Shown here: piece after piece, positions 1 to 7,114 of the stretch
Layout of the letters: every line of letters begins with the position of its first letter
Numbering within the stretch: the stretch's first letter is position 1
IMG/VR virus record: IMGVR_UViG_3300019374_000122
Span: 1 to 7,114 of that record
Length of the DNA stretch: 7,114 nt
DNA from: a virus
Lineage: Duplodnaviria > Heunggongvirae > Uroviricota > Caudoviricetes
Strand: one strand, 5' to 3'
Position numbers and translations under genes: made by a program
Notes under the pieces: model-generated
Database searches by the model: none
Told to the model about the DNA's origin: nothing
The model's input: the letters and a program-made list of their open reading frames with translations, nothing else

Positions 1-140
1 CCCCACCCCACCACCAATGGCAACAGAAAGCGATTTAGGCCATCCGACATACTCAAGCGCGGATGCAAAGGGCAAAGTCAGAGCGCCACATAGCAAAATC
101 TCGAGCGTTTTTTGCTTCCACCCCCCACCACCGACAATAA
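1..140. repeat. Direct repeat copy 1 (about 96% identical to 322..461, offset 321 bp); holin 3'-region sequence
   Basis: Base-by-base alignment of 1-130 with 322-451 shows 5 mismatches; identity decays over 131-140. The 321-bp offset is a multiple of 3. Confidence 0.9.
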
Positions 141-243
141 CATCATAACCGTGGTTACGTGTCGGTTGTCGCCCGTTATCCGTTCCTTCTGACCATGCAA
201 CCATATCCAGGAAAGCTTTACGCTGGGAATTTAGTACCTGCAT
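1..243 (-). CDS. Endolysin (lambda R-type lytic transglycosylase) 5' portion, fused in-frame after codon ~39 to a diverged copy of the holin 3' region; ORF runs off the window at position 1
   Basis: ATG at 243..241, with AAGGAG at 250-255 six nt upstream and directly after the holin stop. Translation MQVLNSQRKAFLDMVAWSEGTDNGRQPTRNHGYDVIVGG closely matches the N-terminus of phage lambda R as I recall it (MVEINNQRKAFLDMLAWSEGTDNGRQKTRNHGYDVIVGG...). It then continues GGWKQKTLEILLCGALTLPFASALEYVGWPKSLSVAIGGGVG, which is holin sequence. No stop codon before the window edge. Confidence 0.6.
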   Translation of the reverse strand, partial: MQVLNSQRKAFLDMVAWSEGTDNGRQPTRNHGYDVIVGGGGWKQKTLEILLCGALTLPFASALEYVGWPKSLSVAIGGGVG

Positions 244-246
244 AAA

Positions 247-582
247 TTACTCCTTCGAGCTACCAAACTTGTTACCGATTACTCTCATTGCAGCCCCACG
301 AATAGCATCGACACCGATCAGCCCCACCCCACCACCAATGGCAACAGAAAGCGATTTAGGCCATCCGACATACTCAAGCGCGGATGCAAAGGTCAACGTC
401 AGAGCGCCACATAGCAAAATCTCGAGCGTTTTTCGCTTCCAGCCACCACCACCGCCAAAATAGGCGATGCGCAAACCAGCCATAACAATCGACATAATCA
501 CTGCGCCCAGCGGCGTATCTCCACGCCACCAGCTCTGAAACAACTCCAGCCAGTCCGGCCAAGTATTTGGGTTATGAGGCAT
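247..582 (-). CDS. Holin, phage lambda S family (class I, three predicted TM segments)
   Basis: Translation from ATG 582..580 (MPHNPNTWPDWLELFQSWWRGDTPLGAVIMSIVMAGLRIAYFGGGGGWKRK...GVDAIRGAAMRVIGNKFGSSKE) aligns in pattern with lambda S (…AMAYLRGRYNGGAFTKTV…IGTDSIGSLIKRFAAKKAG). It sits immediately upstream of, and is translationally linked to, the endolysin start. The track's longer ORF begins at an in-frame GTG at 678, inside the methyltransferase C-terminus, which I consider unlikely as the start. Confidence 0.8.
   Translation of the reverse strand: MPHNPNTWPDWLELFQSWWRGDTPLGAVIMSIVMAGLRIAYFGGGGGWKRKTLEILLCGALTLTFASALEYVGWPKSLSVAIGGGVGLIGVDAIRGAAMRVIGNKFGSSKE
322..461. repeat. Direct repeat copy 2, lying inside the intact holin gene
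   Basis: Same alignment as copy 1; this copy is embedded in the complete holin ORF. Confidence 0.9.
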
Positions 583-658
583 TTCGTCATCTCTCACCTC
601 GCGATATTTGCGGGTGCTGTGTTGGAAATAAAAAGGCCACGCAACGTGGCCACCAGAA

Positions 659-1710
659 TTATTTCCCCACCAGTTCACTTACCTCTTTCACCGTCTGATT
701 AAATCGCTCTGACTCAAGTTCAACACCTAACGCCCGACGCCCCAGCGCCATTGCCGCTTTTATTGTGGAACCGGATCCCATAAGAAATCAGCAACCAGAT
801 CGCCTTGTCGACTACTGGCACTGATTATTTGCCGGAGCATATCCGCAGGCTTCTCACACGGATGTTTACCCGGGTAGAACTGAACGGGTTTATGCGTCCA
901 GACGTCGGTATAAGGCACGGAAACTGATACGGAGAAATAGCGCCGGAGAGTTTTAAACTCATCCAGCAATTCAGAATATTTGCGATTCAGTGAATCATAA
1001 GATGCCACCAGCTGGTGGTGTGGTTGTTCCAGTTGTTGTTCCTGAAATTTCTCTGCCGCTATACGGGAAAACAGTGCCTGCAACTTCCGGTAGTCAGCCT
1101 CATTCGGCAACTGCCACTGACTGGCACCAAACCAGTGGGAAACCATATTTTTCTTACCTGTGGCTTCGGCAATTTGTTTTGCCGTTATACCCAGTTCGGC
1201 ACGAGCATCCCTGAAATACGATATCAGCGGTGCCATTATGTGCTGTTTGAGTTCCCTTTCTTTTGCCGCATAGCCGTCACTTTTGCCGCGATATGGCCCC
1301 TGGTAATGTTCAGCAAACAGAACGCGCTCTGTGGCAGGAAAATATGCGCGCAGACTTTCTTTATTACACCCATTCCAACGTCCGGACGGCTTCGCCCAGA
1401 TGATATGGTTAAGCACGTTGAAACGTTCACGCATCATGATCTCAATATCAGATGCCAGGCGATGCCCACAGAACAGGTAAAGGCTTCCGGCAGGTTTCAA
1501 CACCCGCCAGAACTGGGCCAGACAGTGGTCCAGCCACTTAAGGTAATCTTCGTCCCCTTTCCACTGATTGTCCCAGCCGTTGGGTTTCACCTTGAAGTAC
1601 GGCGGATCGGTAACAATCAGGTCAATGGAATCATCAGGCAGGGACTGAATAAAATGCAGGCAATCAGCGTTGATTAAATCAACACTGTTTATTTTTACAG
1701 TATTTTTCAT
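659..1710 (-). pseudogene. Beta-class DNA methyltransferase (N6-adenine/N4-cytosine, DPPY motif), disrupted by a 1-nt frameshift just before the C-terminal FxGxG AdoMet-binding motif
   Basis: The ORF 760..1710 carries IVTDPPYF near the N-terminus and ends ...DLVADFLWDPVPQ*. A different frame from ATG 781..779 reads MGSGSTIKAAMALGRRALGVELESERFNQTVKEVSELVGK*, with stop at 661..659, which is the canonical motif I and C-terminus. A single missing base around 782-790 would restore one continuous ORF. Confidence 0.75.
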
Positions 1711-1860
1711 GGATCAGTAAGCGTAACTCTGGTAGGCTCACTCTGCTTTTGCGCTAAAGCAGTGGGCCGTGGTTCGCTTGTGACCAGTAGGCATGAGCGA
1801 ATGGCTGGCAGGTGCTACCAACACCCACCAGCCGCCCATTTTCACAGCAGGAAACCGCCA

Positions 1861-2064
1861 TTACTGGCAGCGTCTGAATTTATTCCCGTACCCGCCGTTA
1901 TCCTTCGCCAGACCCGCCAGAACTAACTGAGTCAGTATTAACTGGCACCGGGCTTCGCTTACTCCGGTAGTTCTCGTCATCATGCGTGGCGTTACCCACT
2001 TGTCAGCAGGTAAGAAATGAAGGACTGCGGCGGCGGTTTCTGTCATATCTTGCTGTTTTAGCAT
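1861..2064 (-). CDS. Small hypothetical protein (67 aa), possibly DNA-binding; function unknown
   Basis: ATG at 2064..2062 is preceded by AAGGGA about 7 nt upstream on the minus strand. Translation: MLKQQDMTETAAAVLHFLPADKWVTPRMMTRTTGVSEARCQLILTQLVLAGLAKDNGGYGNKFRRCQ. The track ORF extends to a GTG at 2148 with no RBS. Confidence 0.4.
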   Translation of the reverse strand: MLKQQDMTETAAAVLHFLPADKWVTPRMMTRTTGVSEARCQLILTQLVLAGLAKDNGGYGNKFRRCQ

Positions 2065-2185
2065 GTTTTTTCCCTTCTGGTTAACATGACATACCAATAA
2101 CTCTTGTCTAAAAAGCCAGCAAGATAAAAAGCCAGTATTCACGACCACCAGCGTGTTTACTGTACTGCACCAGGTTTACAGGTAC

Positions 2186-2207
2186 AAAAAAACCGCTCAG
2201 CGGCGGG
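2186..2207 (-). terminator. Candidate intrinsic terminator for minus-strand transcription (short GC hairpin followed by U7)
   Basis: Minus-strand RNA reads cccgccgcugagcgg followed by uuuuuuu (plus-strand A7 at 2186-2192). The stem is only 4-5 bp, so this is weak. Confidence 0.3.
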
Positions 2208-2287
2208 TTTAAGTTGTGTGGCGAAGTAACCACTCTTAACAGATTACAATGTTTTTTGCGGACCGCGCTAATGATTTCCTCTTTTTT

Positions 2288-2317
2288 TTGTTGTATTTTT
2301 CACACGGTTGCTAAAAT
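2288..2317 (+). promoter_or_regulatory. Candidate sigma70 promoter for the plus-strand island (-35 TTGTTG, 18-nt spacer, -10 TAAAAT), preceded by a T-rich tract
   Basis: TTGTTG at 2288-2293 and TAAAAT at 2312-2317, with a T-rich UP-like tract at 2281-2300. The implied leader before ATG 2333 is very short, so the exact start site is uncertain. Confidence 0.35.
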
Positions 2318-2332
2318 TATTTCGGATCGATA

Positions 2333-3274
2333 ATGAGTACAGAAAATAAGAATAAAACTAGGCGAGTGAGAGTTGGTTTTTTCACTGGTAATGGAAGCAA
2401 AAAAGATGGCACATCTGCTGCAAAACTAGCCTTTGAGCAAATGACCACAGCAGATACTGTAACTTTTCCAATAACTTACACAACAGACACCCCAAATCGA
2501 GGGTTAAAGTTAGTTATTCTTCAAAAAGATACCACACTGCAATGTTACTTTGGTTACGTATCGTGGAGAAGGGAATGCCTACTACCGTTCATCGAGGATG
2601 CTACAGGTAGTGAGAGAACAATTCCTTTAAATGATAAAGATTCTGTAGTTGAAAGAACATATTTTATCTATTACTACGAAACGGATTTATTAGCTATGAC
2701 CCTCAACCATATAGGGCCCAAAGTAAATGATCTGGCATTCATTTTGTATAACAAAACTGATTTAAAAAGCGTCACTTTTGAAGCCATTTGGAAACAAGAG
2801 AGCATGAAGGAACTGCTTGAGGACGGAAATATCCTACGTAGTTTCGATCTTATAGTTGCTGCTCCAAGAAACTTTAACAAAGCTAATTATAAGATTAAAA
2901 ACCCTTTAGCTAATGAAATTATTGACATGGTTGTTGGTATGGGCGGGTCGCATCTAAGATTAAATATGCGAGGTCGGATTCGCCCGAAAAAACAAGGTTT
3001 TAACTATCTAAAAACTTCTGTCACCGATGCTATTAAGGAACTACTTGAACTTTTTCCAAAAGGTTCTGGAGGTCTAAAAATTAAAAAAATTGATGTAACA
3101 GAGCCATCCAATAGAACGCCCAAAAGTCTACTTGACCAAGTATTGGTCAGTACAAAGACAATCATTGTCAAAAGCGGTTATCCATCCGATTCTGATATCA
3201 GAACGGCGATGATATCTGCTAAAATTGATAACGCGAACTATCTTGCACAGTATGAGCTCGCTAGCAGAGACTAA
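2333..3274 (+). CDS. Hypothetical soluble protein (313 aa), first gene of the AT-rich island; candidate sensor component of a phage-exclusion/abortive-infection module
   Basis: Long uninterrupted ORF in an AT-rich segment (about 38% GC in a 100-nt hand count at 2333-2432, against about 48% at 4201-4300 in the flank). No Walker A, DPPY, HNH or other motif that I recognise. Its stop is 22 nt from the RBS-led start of the membrane-protein gene. Confidence 0.8.
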   Translation: MSTENKNKTRRVRVGFFTGNGSKKDGTSAAKLAFEQMTTADTVTFPITYTTDTPNRGLKLVILQKDTTLQCYFGYVSWRRECLLPFIEDATGSERTIPLNDKDSVVERTYFIYYYETDLLAMTLNHIGPKVNDLAFILYNKTDLKSVTFEAIWKQESMKELLEDGNILRSFDLIVAAPRNFNKANYKIKNPLANEIIDMVVGMGGSHLRLNMRGRIRPKKQGFNYLKTSVTDAIKELLELFPKGSGGLKIKKIDVTEPSNRTPKSLLDQVLVSTKTIIVKSGYPSDSDIRTAMISAKIDNANYLAQYELASRD

Positions 3275-3295
3275 TAACCAAGCATGGAGGACACA

Positions 3296-3745
3296 ATGAG
3301 AGAATTAGCCACTTTTCTCTGGAAATGCGTCCTCTGGATTCTGTTGACCTATGCAGCGACAAAACTGTTTAAACCGATGAAGCATGCTGACGTACTCACA
3401 ACAGCGGGGGTGCTCTCGACTATATCAGGCATCCTGTTTGGTTTTGTTCTGGCTGCAATATCTATATTTAGTAGTGCAAACAGCGATAAGGAAGGAGCAA
3501 TTAATGCCCTTAAGCAAAACAACGTGTTACCAACTCTGGTAAATCGATTACTTTCAACAGGGTTAACTCTCATCGTCGCATGTATATTTCCATTGATAGC
3601 GATGTTTCTACCAGATGATGTTATTGTTGCGGGCAAACCTATTGATTTCCTATTCATACTGTTAGGCTTATCCTCCCTTATAATTTCGCTATATACCTTC
3701 GGAAGGTGTTGGTTAGTGTTACGAAAAATCTTCCCCCACTTGTGA
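3296..3745 (+). CDS. Small integral membrane protein (~149 aa, four predicted TM helices); candidate effector of the island
   Basis: GGAGG at 3286-3290 lies 5 nt upstream of ATG 3296; an alternative ATG at 3284 has no RBS. Four hydrophobic stretches: LATFLWKCVLWILLTYAATKLF, VLTTAGVLSTISGILFGFVLAAISIF, LPTLVNRLLSTGLTLIVACIFPLIAMFL, PIDFLFILLGLSSLIISLYTFGRCWLVL. Confidence 0.8.
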   Translation: MRELATFLWKCVLWILLTYAATKLFKPMKHADVLTTAGVLSTISGILFGFVLAAISIFSSANSDKEGAINALKQNNVLPTLVNRLLSTGLTLIVACIFPLIAMFLPDDVIVAGKPIDFLFILLGLSSLIISLYTFGRCWLVLRKIFPHL

Positions 3746-3774
3746 CAGGTTGGCCTCATATGGGGCCAACCTGT
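3745..3774. terminator. Perfect 11-bp inverted repeat (acaggttggcc / ggccaacctgt) with 8-nt loop, between the convergent island and Q; likely bidirectional stem-loop terminator or insulator
   Basis: Left arm 3745-3755, right arm 3764-3774, loop tcatatgg. It overlaps the stop codon of the membrane-protein gene and lies 7 bp from the Q stop. There is no adjacent U-run on either strand. Confidence 0.5.
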
Positions 3775-3780
3775 GCAACC

Positions 3781-4149
3781 CTAAGCGTCCATTTCAAGGT
3801 TAACATCCAACATTGAAAGGCAACCATCAATAAATCCTTCGGCTAGTTGTATTTCTATGCGTACCAATTTTTCATCCTTTCCACGCACCTTTGCAATCTT
3901 ACGCTTGGATATTCTGTATAAATAATGTGCCACAAGCAGCGAGTGCTCATCTGGCTTTTTTTGCTTTAGACGAGCAAGACAACCTTCAATAATTAATGCA
4001 TCACTATCTGAACAAGCCTGACGTGTTTTGCTTGTGTAGGGAAGAAGCCCCTTAAACCCAGCAGCTATAGGCGAATAGTCTACTCCAGAACTATCACTCG
4101 CCGCCCATGCTCCCCAACGCTCCAGAACCATCTGAATATCACGCATCAA
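3781..4149 (-). CDS. Late-gene antitermination protein Q (phage 82/21 QuuD-like family)
   Basis: Translation MMRDIQMVLERWGAWAA... matches the N-terminal signature of QuuD-type Q proteins as I recall it (MRDIQMVLERWGAWAA...). GGAG lies 7 nt upstream of ATG 4149. Position upstream of the lysis genes fits. Confidence 0.85.
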   Translation of the reverse strand: MMRDIQMVLERWGAWAASDSSGVDYSPIAAGFKGLLPYTSKTRQACSDSDALIIEGCLARLKQKKPDEHSLLVAHYLYRISKRKIAKVRGKDEKLVRIEIQLAEGFIDGCLSMLDVNLEMDA

Positions 4150-4163
4150 CTTTCTCCACCAAA

Positions 4164-5159
4164 TCAGGCCAACACACCAATCGCCAGCGCGCGATCGATA
4201 AAACGAAATATCAGCTCCAGTTGGGAGCCATACTTCTCTTCAAATGCCACGGTATCCGCATGCAGCTCGTCGTGATGCTTTCTGCACAAAGGCAACACAA
4301 AGAGGTCATGCGCTTTTGTACCCATTCCACCCTGACCGTGACCTATCAGGTGGTGGGGATCATCAGCAGGCTTTCCACAACATGCACACGGCTGTGTCTT
4401 AACCCAGCGCGTGTACTTTTCATTAACCCAGCGGCGGCGTTTTGGGCGTAACATAAAAGACTCCGGCGACTCCGGATCCACTTTCAGCGCCAGCACCTTT
4501 TTCGCCTTATCCTGGATGATGCTGGTGGCAGGAACCGAAGGCACAAGGTCACTTTCCCGGGTGACAGACGGCACAACAGGCTTCGGTAATCTCAGTGCCT
4601 TACGGGCTGCACTTTCCGGTAAGGCATCTGCCAGATCATTACGAATCAGCCACCAGCACAGTTCCGGCATTGTCACAACGTGACTATCATCAAAACCGAG
4701 ATCCCGACGCACAACAGACAACACCCAGCGGGCACAGTTATCCGTTGCCATTGATTCCAGCCGTTCCGTGAACTGATCGCGAAGCTGGTTATCGCAGTGC
4801 CAGCACAGACGGATTGCGCCCGGCGCGTGTCGCATTGTGGTCATGTTCTCGCTGTGCCAGTCGGAATGAGGCCACTGGCAGCCTTTTTCACGAAGTAACC
4901 AGCTTTCAAGACATTCCACCCCACCAGCACGACGAATCACTGCCTCATTACGGAACACGGCCAGAACGGCAGGATCATCCGCCAGCGGTTGTGATGCCGC
5001 AGGAACGGCACCACTGGCGAAAGATGAATAACGCTCCGGCTCAGGCTCCAGCAGAACACGGCCCTGCATAAACAGGGGCATCAGCTCTGAACCTGGCCTG
5101 AACAATACGATCCCCATACGCGGGGCAATTTCAGGGGTCAGTAGTGCTCTCACGGTCAC
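4164..5159 (-). CDS. DUF968-like prophage protein with C-terminal Cys/His-rich (HNH-like) motif; start codon uncertain
   Basis: 331-aa ORF; C-terminus PCACCGKPADDPHHLIGHGQGGMGTKAHDLFVLPLCRKHHDELH. The track start is a GTG at 5159, one nt after the KilA-N stop, with no clear RBS; internal ATGs are alternative starts. Confidence 0.65.
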   Translation of the reverse strand: MTVRALLTPEIAPRMGIVLFRPGSELMPLFMQGRVLLEPEPERYSSFASGAVPAASQPLADDPAVLAVFRNEAVIRRAGGVECLESWLLREKGCQWPHSDWHSENMTTMRHAPGAIRLCWHCDNQLRDQFTERLESMATDNCARWVLSVVRRDLGFDDSHVVTMPELCWWLIRNDLADALPESAARKALRLPKPVVPSVTRESDLVPSVPATSIIQDKAKKVLALKVDPESPESFMLRPKRRRWVNEKYTRWVKTQPCACCGKPADDPHHLIGHGQGGMGTKAHDLFVLPLCRKHHDELHADTVAFEEKYGSQLELIFRFIDRALAIGVLA

Positions 5160-5160
5160 C

Positions 5161-5970
5161 TCAATGAACGGTATCGAGCAGCTTTAACAGCTCAGTGAAT
5201 CGGGATTCGAAGAAATGCGGCTGCGTCTCGCGCGGATTTGCAGGACTGGTGATGTTCTTGCCGAACATGCAGCCTTTCGCCGTCAGCGACCAGAATTTTT
5301 TGATGTTGTTAATCGCTGTACGGCTGTATCGTTCGCGCTGTTCGACGATCCCCAGCTTCGCCATCTGGTGATATGCCTGATTAGCCGTCAGGCGGATACC
5401 ATACTGCTTCAGCAGTGCACTCAGTGACAGCGTGGGGCGGCTTGAGCCATCAGGCGCGTCAGCAGGAACATCAATGGCATAACGCGGTGCCAGATTCGGT
5501 AAGCCAACAGCCTCCTGGAGTTTCTGACAGGCCCCAAGCACAGATGAGTTAGACAGATTTAACTCCCGGCGCATAAAGTCCAGCAGAATCACGCCAGCCT
5601 GCATCTTGTCAGCAGCCTGTCCGGATAACTTTTCCGGCGCGCTGGTTACCATATCGAAAGTACGGATCACCTTCAGATGGAATGACGGGCTGATCCACAT
5701 TGCATAGGCATACACCAGTTCCTTACAGACATACGTTCCCCGTTCATTTCCCCCATGAATCACACTAACTGGGTCAACACCCAAATTCTGGGTGTTGATT
5801 AATTCATGAACAAGATCAACAGTTTGTTGGCTGGAAAGAAACTTTCCTGGCTCCTTGGTTCTGGCATTTGCACCAGATGCTACTGCTGCGCGATGCAGAT
5901 CGTTCAGGCTGTAACGCTCATAAGCATCACGACGAACTTCAATACCATCAATGACCATCAGATTATTCAT
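5161..5970 (-). CDS. KilA-N domain protein (Roi/antirepressor-like DNA-binding protein)
   Basis: N-terminus MNNLMVIDGIEVRRDAYERYSLNDLHRAAVASG... fits the KilA-N pattern. ATG 5970 is preceded by GAGGGG about 8 nt upstream. Confidence 0.7.
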   Translation of the reverse strand: MNNLMVIDGIEVRRDAYERYSLNDLHRAAVASGANARTKEPGKFLSSQQTVDLVHELINTQNLGVDPVSVIHGGNERGTYVCKELVYAYAMWISPSFHLKVIRTFDMVTSAPEKLSGQAADKMQAGVILLDFMRRELNLSNSSVLGACQKLQEAVGLPNLAPRYAIDVPADAPDGSSRPTLSLSALLKQYGIRLTANQAYHQMAKLGIVEQRERYSRTAINNIKKFWSLTAKGCMFGKNITSPANPRETQPHFFESRFTELLKLLDTVH

Positions 5971-5989
5971 ACTTCGTTTCCCCTCTTAA

Positions 5990-6379
5990 TCAGGCAGCTG
6001 CACCCGCCGTTTTCTCGTACTTACTGATAGTGATCTCGACCTTCCCTTCCGGGATAACCGGTCCCCACTCCACCAGCATTCTTTTCACCTGACTGTCGTC
6101 TTCCCACACCCCCGCGTGGGTCAGGGCGTCAAACAGCGCCTTGTTATAGTTGTCCAGATCGCGGATCCTGTTATCCGGAGGAAACAACACGATCTCCACT
6201 GAAGCAGGTGCCGACGTTGGTTTCGGCAGACGACGTAACTGCTCAACTATTGCTGCGCACGCCGCGCTCTGGAATTTTCGCCCCGCCGCGCTTATCAGGC
6301 TCTTACCAGCAAACGCCCCTTTGTTGGGGTGTCGCCAGTACGTGTTCACGCTGGGCGGAAAAGGCAGGATCAGCTTCAT
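5990..6379 (-). CDS. rusA: Holliday junction resolvase RusA
   Basis: MKLILPFPPSVNTYWRH...RIRDLDNYNKALFDALTHAGVWEDDSQV matches the E. coli RusA pattern (PWPPSxNxYYRH...[28 protein letters not shown]), including the catalytic Asp cluster. Its start overlaps the upstream stop as ATGA. Confidence 0.9.
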   Translation of the reverse strand: MKLILPFPPSVNTYWRHPNKGAFAGKSLISAAGRKFQSAACAAIVEQLRRLPKPTSAPASVEIVLFPPDNRIRDLDNYNKALFDALTHAGVWEDDSQVKRMLVEWGPVIPEGKVEITISKYEKTAGAAA

Positions 6380-6702
6380 ACTTTCAGGCCCCTCTCATGT
6401 AACCAGTGGGTTGCACGCAGCCTTGCGTTTTCCTCACCGGCAAGCAGTGAGCGGATAATCCCGACCGCCTCGCTGTCGTCGTCCTTCACCGCGGTATGAA
6501 GCGTGATGCCCCGGGCCACGCCACGCTTTATCGTGATGACGCCTTTTTTCTCCAGTGCGCGAAGATGCTCCACCGCTGCATTCACTGAACGGTATCCCAG
6601 CATGGTTGCCACCTCCTGATTGGTTGGCGGGAAGCCACGTTCTTTCTGATAAGAAATCAGCATATCCAGCACCTGCTGCTGGCATTGAGTTAACGTCGTC
6701 AT
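6376..6702 (-). CDS. LexA N-terminal DNA-binding-domain homolog lacking the S24 peptidase domain (108 aa)
   Basis: From ATG 6702..6700: MTTLTQCQQQVLDMLISYQKERGFPPTNQEVATMLGYRSVNAAVEHLRALEKKGVITIKRGVARGITL aligns with E. coli LexA residues ~4-68 ([65 protein letters not shown]). No Ser/Lys protease domain follows. The start overlaps the upstream stop as TAATG. Confidence 0.8.
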   Translation of the reverse strand: MTTLTQCQQQVLDMLISYQKERGFPPTNQEVATMLGYRSVNAAVEHLRALEKKGVITIKRGVARGITLHTAVKDDDSEAVGIIRSLLAGEENARLRATHWLHERGLKV

Positions 6703-7052
6703 TAAGCCCCCACGTAATTCCCTGACAGATACCACTCATCACCCGATGCAGCGCGCTTGCTGCTTTTCCGTAAGCACCGCTCACGACGCGCAAGAAAATT
6801 GTTTCGCTCTTGCTGGGAGTGGCTTTCACGGAATGCCGCCATCCACACCGTTGCAGCACGACGGTATAAGCCCCTGGACTCCAGTTCTTCCGCCTGGCGG
6901 GTCAGGCACAAAATCTCCCGCGGGTCGTTAGTGCCGACATAGAAATTGCGCACAGGTCTGGTTTCACGAACTGGTTGCGGTTCCGCCTCCTGCGCTCTCT
7001 CAGTCAGGCGCGGGAAATGTCTGCGTGTATCCCCTTCACAACGGTGAGCCAC
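6702..7052 (-). CDS. PerC-family-like regulator domain; true start uncertain because the frame stays open to the window edge
   Basis: AEELESRGLYRRAATVWMAAF...ERNNFLARRERCL resembles the PerC/Pch pattern (AExLExxGxWRRAAxxW...RRxxCL). The track start is a GTG at 7052, and the same frame has no stop between 7053 and 7114. Confidence 0.55.
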   Translation of the reverse strand: MAHRCEGDTRRHFPRLTERAQEAEPQPVRETRPVRNFYVGTNDPREILCLTRQAEELESRGLYRRAATVWMAAFRESHSQQERNNFLARRERCLRKSSKRAASGDEWYLSGNYVGA

Positions 7053-7114
7053 ACGACCACTCTGACGTAACTTGCTTGCTGACTGCAGAACGCGCTGCCG
7101 TGAGTAACCTGCAA

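Follow-up and report, generated by a model that had tools for sequence, protein, structure and literature searches.

The window, a stretch of 7,114 nucleotides that is recognisable from its sequence as part of a lambdoid prophage of E. coli, carries a methyltransferase gene of the M.EcoGII family that has very probably been interrupted by an unprogrammed, one-off deletion of a single nucleotide. As written, this copy is a frameshifted member of the family, i.e. a pseudogene or an erroneous sequence, and in place of an uninterrupted ORF of about 350 aa it has a 1-nt deletion at 782-783. We give a base-calling or assembly error in a truly intact gene about an even chance and a real, very recent loss-of-function mutation a little short of an even chance, with a small remainder for all other explanations together; sequence alone cannot separate error from real mutation. 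The two ORFs at this locus are best annotated as one frameshifted M.EcoGII-family methyltransferase gene and not as two genes. The finding is an ordinary one, a known gene family with a one-off deletion, which brings no new mechanism, family or regulatory principle and has little significance beyond annotation.

One methyltransferase gene in two frames

Translation of the window gives two overlapping ORFs of 316 and 40 aa on the minus strand (Table 1), the shorter of which begins 22 nt ahead of the stop of the longer and lies in the -1 frame relative to it. The 316-aa ORF ends in ...DLVADFLWDPVPQ, its out-of-frame tail being 7 residues (LWDPVPQ) followed by TAA at 760-762; the product of the 40-aa ORF is MGSGSTIKAAMALGRRALGVELESERFNQTVKEVSELVGK, reading MGSGSTIKAAMALGRRALGVELE... 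from its start. The Pfam profile N6_N4_Mtase (PF01555) is matched by the 316-aa ORF over positions 1-188 of 221 (E 5e-27) and by the 40-aa ORF over positions 190-220 of 221 (E 5e-6), and the two ORFs are therefore successive pieces of one domain. Restoring a single T yields a 350-aa protein that reads ...DLVADFFMGSGSTIKAAMALG... and is identical to WP_021548833.1, so that we are dealing with a split gene and not with a chance resemblance. The first-pass annotation had proposed a phage DNA methyltransferase, broken immediately ahead of its AdoMet-binding motif, with the N-terminal part containing DPPY and the part containing motif I in different frames that overlap by about 20 nt. The domain match and the identity of the repaired protein agree with this description, the overlap measures 22 nt, and the 40-aa ORF starts at the Met of FxGxG.

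Table 1. Positions in the window of the methyltransferase gene, its motifs and its neighbours
Feature	Position	Strand	Details
Lambda-family holin, downstream neighbour	247..582	-	Pfam Phage_holin_3_1, E 3e-27; annotation
Terminator-like hairpin GGCCACGTTGCGTGGCC, then T-run	about 625..651	-	directly 3' of methyltransferase stop
Methyltransferase gene, 3' part	659..781	-	40-aa ORF from Met of FxGxG (MGSGST...) to natural stop
Methyltransferase gene, 5' part	760..1710	-	316-aa ORF: DPPY, central target-recognition region, motif X
Frameshift site	782..783	-	TT vs TTT in every relative; codons Phe308-Phe309 of DFFMGSG
DPPY catalytic motif (motif IV), residues 35-38	1597..1608	-	sequence and translation
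95-aa ORF, directly upstream of methyltransferase	1861..2148	-	phrog_331, unknown function; annotated hypothetical protein
Antiterminator Q	3781..4149	-	Pfam Phage_antitermQ, E 8e-52; upstream of methyltransferase

By comparison with its relatives the restored protein is a beta-class N6-adenine DNA methyltransferase of the M.EcoGII family, and near-identical annotated relatives settle the identity of the gene. The repaired protein has the beta-class order of motifs, with DPPY at residues 35-38 and FMGSG at 309-313, which in the window fall in different frames; the same order, an N-terminal DPPY and a C-terminal FxGxG, is described for M.EcoGII (PMC5778455). Its middle part is a helix-turn-helix target-recognition domain. 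The best relatives with solved structures are beta-class methyltransferases, M.RsrI, M1.MboII, CcrM and DpnA among them, and residues 281-333 of the restored protein align with the AdoMet-binding region of solved beta-class enzymes. Against M.EcoGII itself, whose sequence was taken from machine-read text of Table S1 of PMC11551740 and may contain small reading errors, 283 of 349 positions are identical (81%), with 2 gaps and residues 1-348 aligned. The methylase of phage 1720a-02, which has been named as a carrier of a very similar MTase (PMC5778455), is 81.4% identical to the repaired protein.

M.EcoGII is a characterised non-specific adenine methyltransferase from an E. coli O104:H4 prophage (PMC5778455), and the present gene resembles it in its length of 349-350 aa, in the beta-class motif order and in being an orphan gene on an E. 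coli prophage; it differs in that the window copy is broken by a 1-nt deletion ahead of FxGxG. With 97-99% identity, the SfV/mEp460/cdtI branch is also nearer to the window copy than M.EcoGII is. Phages SfV (orf48), mEp460, cdtI, Ayreon and vB_EcoM-720R4 have methyltransferases that are 98-99% identical to the window copy in protein and 97-98% in DNA, and their genes adjoin a holin gene and a terminator where the neighbourhood is annotated. Unlike the window copy, each of these is a single, unbroken ORF of 350 aa.

The 81% identity to M.EcoGII leads us to expect that the window methyltransferase would methylate adenine with little or no sequence specificity. M.EcoGII is silent in the lysogen, its constitutive expression is harmful, and its authors suggest that it is turned on at prophage excision (PMC5778455). 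By extension from M.EcoGII, the intact gene of the present prophage would stay silent in the lysogenic state and be expressed, downstream of Q, once the prophage is induced, and its product would then methylate the adenines of the phage DNA broadly, shielding the progeny from host restriction. With the deletion, translation would leave the frame just ahead of FxGxG and reach a stop 7 codons later, giving a product that consists of the residues up to 309 and 7 foreign ones and that would lack motif I together with the final 41 residues of the catalytic domain. The truncation removes part of the catalytic domain because in M.EcoGII the catalytic Rossmann domain is formed by residues 1-134 and 260-349, with the target-recognition domain at 160-237 (PMC11551740). 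The product as written should thus be unable to bind AdoMet and should be inactive. If the deletion is real, virions would be without protective m6A hypermethylation and would be more exposed to restriction in new hosts.

A single missing T

The first-pass annotation had placed the loss of one base in the stretch 'ttcttatggg', and alignment to the prophage of E. coli CFS3313 (locus L001) recovers the loss of the same T. Over window positions 126..7114 this alignment of 6,990 columns contains 0 mismatches and 1 gap, the gap being the change from GATTTCTTTATGGGA to GATTTCTTATGGGA at window 782-783. A base-by-base comparison with the closest complete genome gives GATTTCTTTATGGGATCC for the reference and GATTTCTTATGGGATCC for the window, with one T of TTT lost. 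Identity across the whole window is 99.7-99.9% in fifteen complete genomes, whose sources are cattle, pig, human, lettuce and lake water, and in all 15 of these near-identical genomes the stretch matched in the gene region exceeds the query by one base.

Homologues are otherwise almost uniformly intact. Among the phage records listed, all 60 give one uninterrupted protein alignment, which in 56 of the 60 extends over residues 1 to 348-350, and 78 of the 79 full-length IMG/VR copies have an ORF of 350-354 aa. The two frames of the window, whose contiguity in intact homologues the first-pass annotation had put forward for comparison, are hence continuous in 60/60 listed phage homologues, in 78/79 IMG/VR copies and in 15/15 genomes. 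The median dN/dS across 926 pairs, drawn from 53 distinct close alleles, is 0.056, pointing to strong purifying selection on the gene family.

The deletion looks unique to this contig. The exact 316-aa product occurs once among ~15 billion proteins, in the JGI/IMG contig of this window, and the intact protein is found in at least 957 contigs and belongs to a cluster of 4,060 members. Deletion-bearing 26- to 36-mers gave 0 matches in IMG/VR, in JGI metagenomes, in GTDB species genomes and in 5,426 complete E. coli genomes, where this exact-word test detects only copies with flanks nearly identical to those of the window. The intact 31-mer is present in 118 IMG/VR contigs, and for a 70-mer covering the site the best matches have 98.6% identity over 71 record bases, i.e. 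the intact form.

The other broken copies that we encountered carry different lesions at different sites. One of them (L093) has CC changed to C at about nt 322, and in E. coli GPEC484-624 (NZ_CM142767.1; L130, 301..310) a run of A5 is shortened to A4 right after the start codon, this being the only 1-nt deletion reported when net length changes were taken from 60 records sampled across 1,272 E. coli matches. The copy in GPEC484-624 is annotated with an alternative upstream start and is not flagged as frameshifted. A third (L120 2293..3123; ENA ERZ16268083 scaffold_16301) has internal deletions of 112 and 107 nt, which reflect either a misassembly or a separate route by which the gene was broken. 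We had considered it as a second case of the lesion in the window and ruled it out, as TTT is kept and the internal deletions are different. Apart from these frame-disrupting lesions, a 353-aa allele found in 24 contigs (P0006) has DLPY instead of the catalytic DPPY and a different C-terminal tail, and may represent a variant with impaired catalysis that is distributed across several E. coli genomes.

A sequencing or assembly error, to which we give about an even chance, would agree with the observation that an indel is the only difference from 15 unrelated complete genomes, with zero substitutions, and with the nature of the contig, which is short and whose left end is anomalous, with no counterpart in any complete genome. 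Against it, a run of 3 bases is a weak context for homopolymer miscalls, and the 15 longer runs in the gene (4-5 bases) match the reference, as do all the runs in the 7 kb. A real and recent loss of function, for which our estimate stays somewhat below even, is made plausible by the target, a silent and potentially toxic prophage gene being a likely candidate for decay; the strong purifying selection on the family speaks against it, as does the occurrence of the allele in no second sample. A version of this reading in which the deletion is not only real but selected, as adaptive inactivation of a toxic prophage gene or through a truncated protein that poisons co-resident prophage methyltransferases, has in our view a slim chance. 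The lysogen may gain from a knock-out of the gene because methylation of the M.EcoGII type is harmful when expressed (PMC5778455).

Switching, recoding and functional fragments

Methyltransferases elsewhere can be phase variable. The first-pass annotation had raised the possibility of a slippage site that toggles methylation, i.e. of the T-run as a contingency tract at which slipped-strand mispairing turns the methyltransferase on and off. The sole support that the sequence offers is the lesion itself, a one-base change of length in a homopolymer. The tract, on the other hand, is only T3 (T2 here), one of 48 three-base runs in the gene, in which 15 further runs are longer, and Tandem Repeats Finder returned no tandem or simple-sequence repeat in window 600..1800. 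Tract-length polymorphism is likewise lacking in the four collections searched (IMG/VR, JGI metagenomes, GTDB and complete E. coli), in which the deleted form was seen in 0, and the truncated product was found once, the other broken copies being hit elsewhere. In the Type III mod genes of the phasevarions of Haemophilus, Neisseria and Helicobacter the frame of the ORF is likewise set by the length of a nucleotide run, but their simple-sequence tracts are long and variable, both among strains and within a strain, and the window gene with its T3 neither works like these genes nor belongs to their class. With a tract of T3, no repeat, no polymorphism and no other copy with a change of length at this point, the proposed switch did not hold up, and we reject phase variation as barely credible.

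The same layout, with a downstream ORF in the -1 frame and an overlap of 22 nt, might instead be read as recoding, in which programmed -1 ribosomal frameshifting or transcriptional slippage within the overlap yields full-length enzyme. The ORF contains a single slippery heptamer of the form X XXY YYZ, CCCGGGT, which lies about 90 nt upstream of the 22-nt overlap; the overlap itself has none, and there is no long run of A or T for transcriptional slippage. A -1 slip after TTA would moreover exchange the conserved Phe of FxGxG for Leu. Nor is the two-frame layout shared by homologues, the close and distant ones examined being all single-frame. We have therefore rejected both programmed frameshifting and transcriptional slippage, for want of a slippery site and of a conserved layout, and regard recoding as extremely improbable.

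A further reading holds that the fragments are themselves functional, either because an active two-piece enzyme is formed from the 316-aa and 40-aa products or because the truncated protein acts as a DNA-binding or dominant-negative factor; the dominant-negative variant supposes that the truncated protein might retain its DNA-binding (helix-turn-helix) domain and a dimer interface. The 40-aa ORF does open with ATG exactly at the Met of FMGSG, and E. coli genomes may hold several copies of the gene, in up to 8 places. Yet there is no recognisable ribosome-binding site ahead of the internal ATG, the break lies inside motif I and replaces its Phe, and the arrangement is seen once only, with nothing to suggest that it is conserved. 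The other exact copies of the 40-aa product also argue against this reading, as they are partial genes at contig edges or L120 with its different internal deletions. We accordingly allow functional fragments next to no probability.

The exact 40-aa product was found in 8 contigs in one index and in 16 in another, and among the matches listed 9 of 10 are contig-edge partial genes that start 0-2 nt from the ATG. That contig starts accumulate near the ATG of MGSGST is probably a consequence of using the exact 40-aa product as the query, since the same cluster contains many other partial lengths, among them products of 42-69 aa. The contig-edge cases (L121-L129) come from independent NCBI, ENA and Logan assemblies, and assemblies frequently break within this multi-copy prophage gene.

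Prophage neighbourhood and left end of the contig

In a lambdoid late region, the methyltransferase gene has antiterminator Q on one side and the holin on the other, and its neighbourhood further includes three ORFs of unknown function and the lysozyme. The position of Q upstream and of the hairpin and holin downstream fits late, Q-dependent expression, and a terminator is annotated in the homologous stretch of the SfV and Ayreon phage records. No nuclease-like neighbour that could be a partner restriction enzyme was detected by Pfam, and PADLOC flags the methyltransferase only; on this evidence a Type II restriction-modification context was ruled out. The gene is accordingly that of an orphan prophage methyltransferase that is not accompanied by a partner restriction enzyme, where the neighbouring ORFs of unknown function could in principle be nucleases.

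Between Q and the methyltransferase lies a two-gene cassette of low GC content (36-42%) on the plus strand, at 2333..3274 and 3284..3745. The first gene encodes a protein of 313 aa (phrog_7651) and the second one of 153 aa (phrog_8552) with a weak, sub-threshold Pfam match to DUF4064; neither protein has a significant Pfam match or a PADLOC match, and both are hypothetical proteins in RefSeq. Lambdoid phages often hold accessory or defence genes at this spot, and the pair may be a moron, an accessory cassette gained by horizontal transfer.

At its left end the contig repeats holin positions 322..458 in direct orientation: window 1..137 matches them at 95.6%, with 6 substitutions. At the junction, 126..137, this copy passes into the 5' part of the lysozyme gene over a brief stretch of CACCACCG(A)CAA that both have in common. 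The junction is present in none of the complete E. coli genomes, which have no match to the 1..137 allele above 95.6%. The reference prophage has lysozyme sequence where the window has 1..137, and the junction is either a chimera at the contig end or a real rearrangement.
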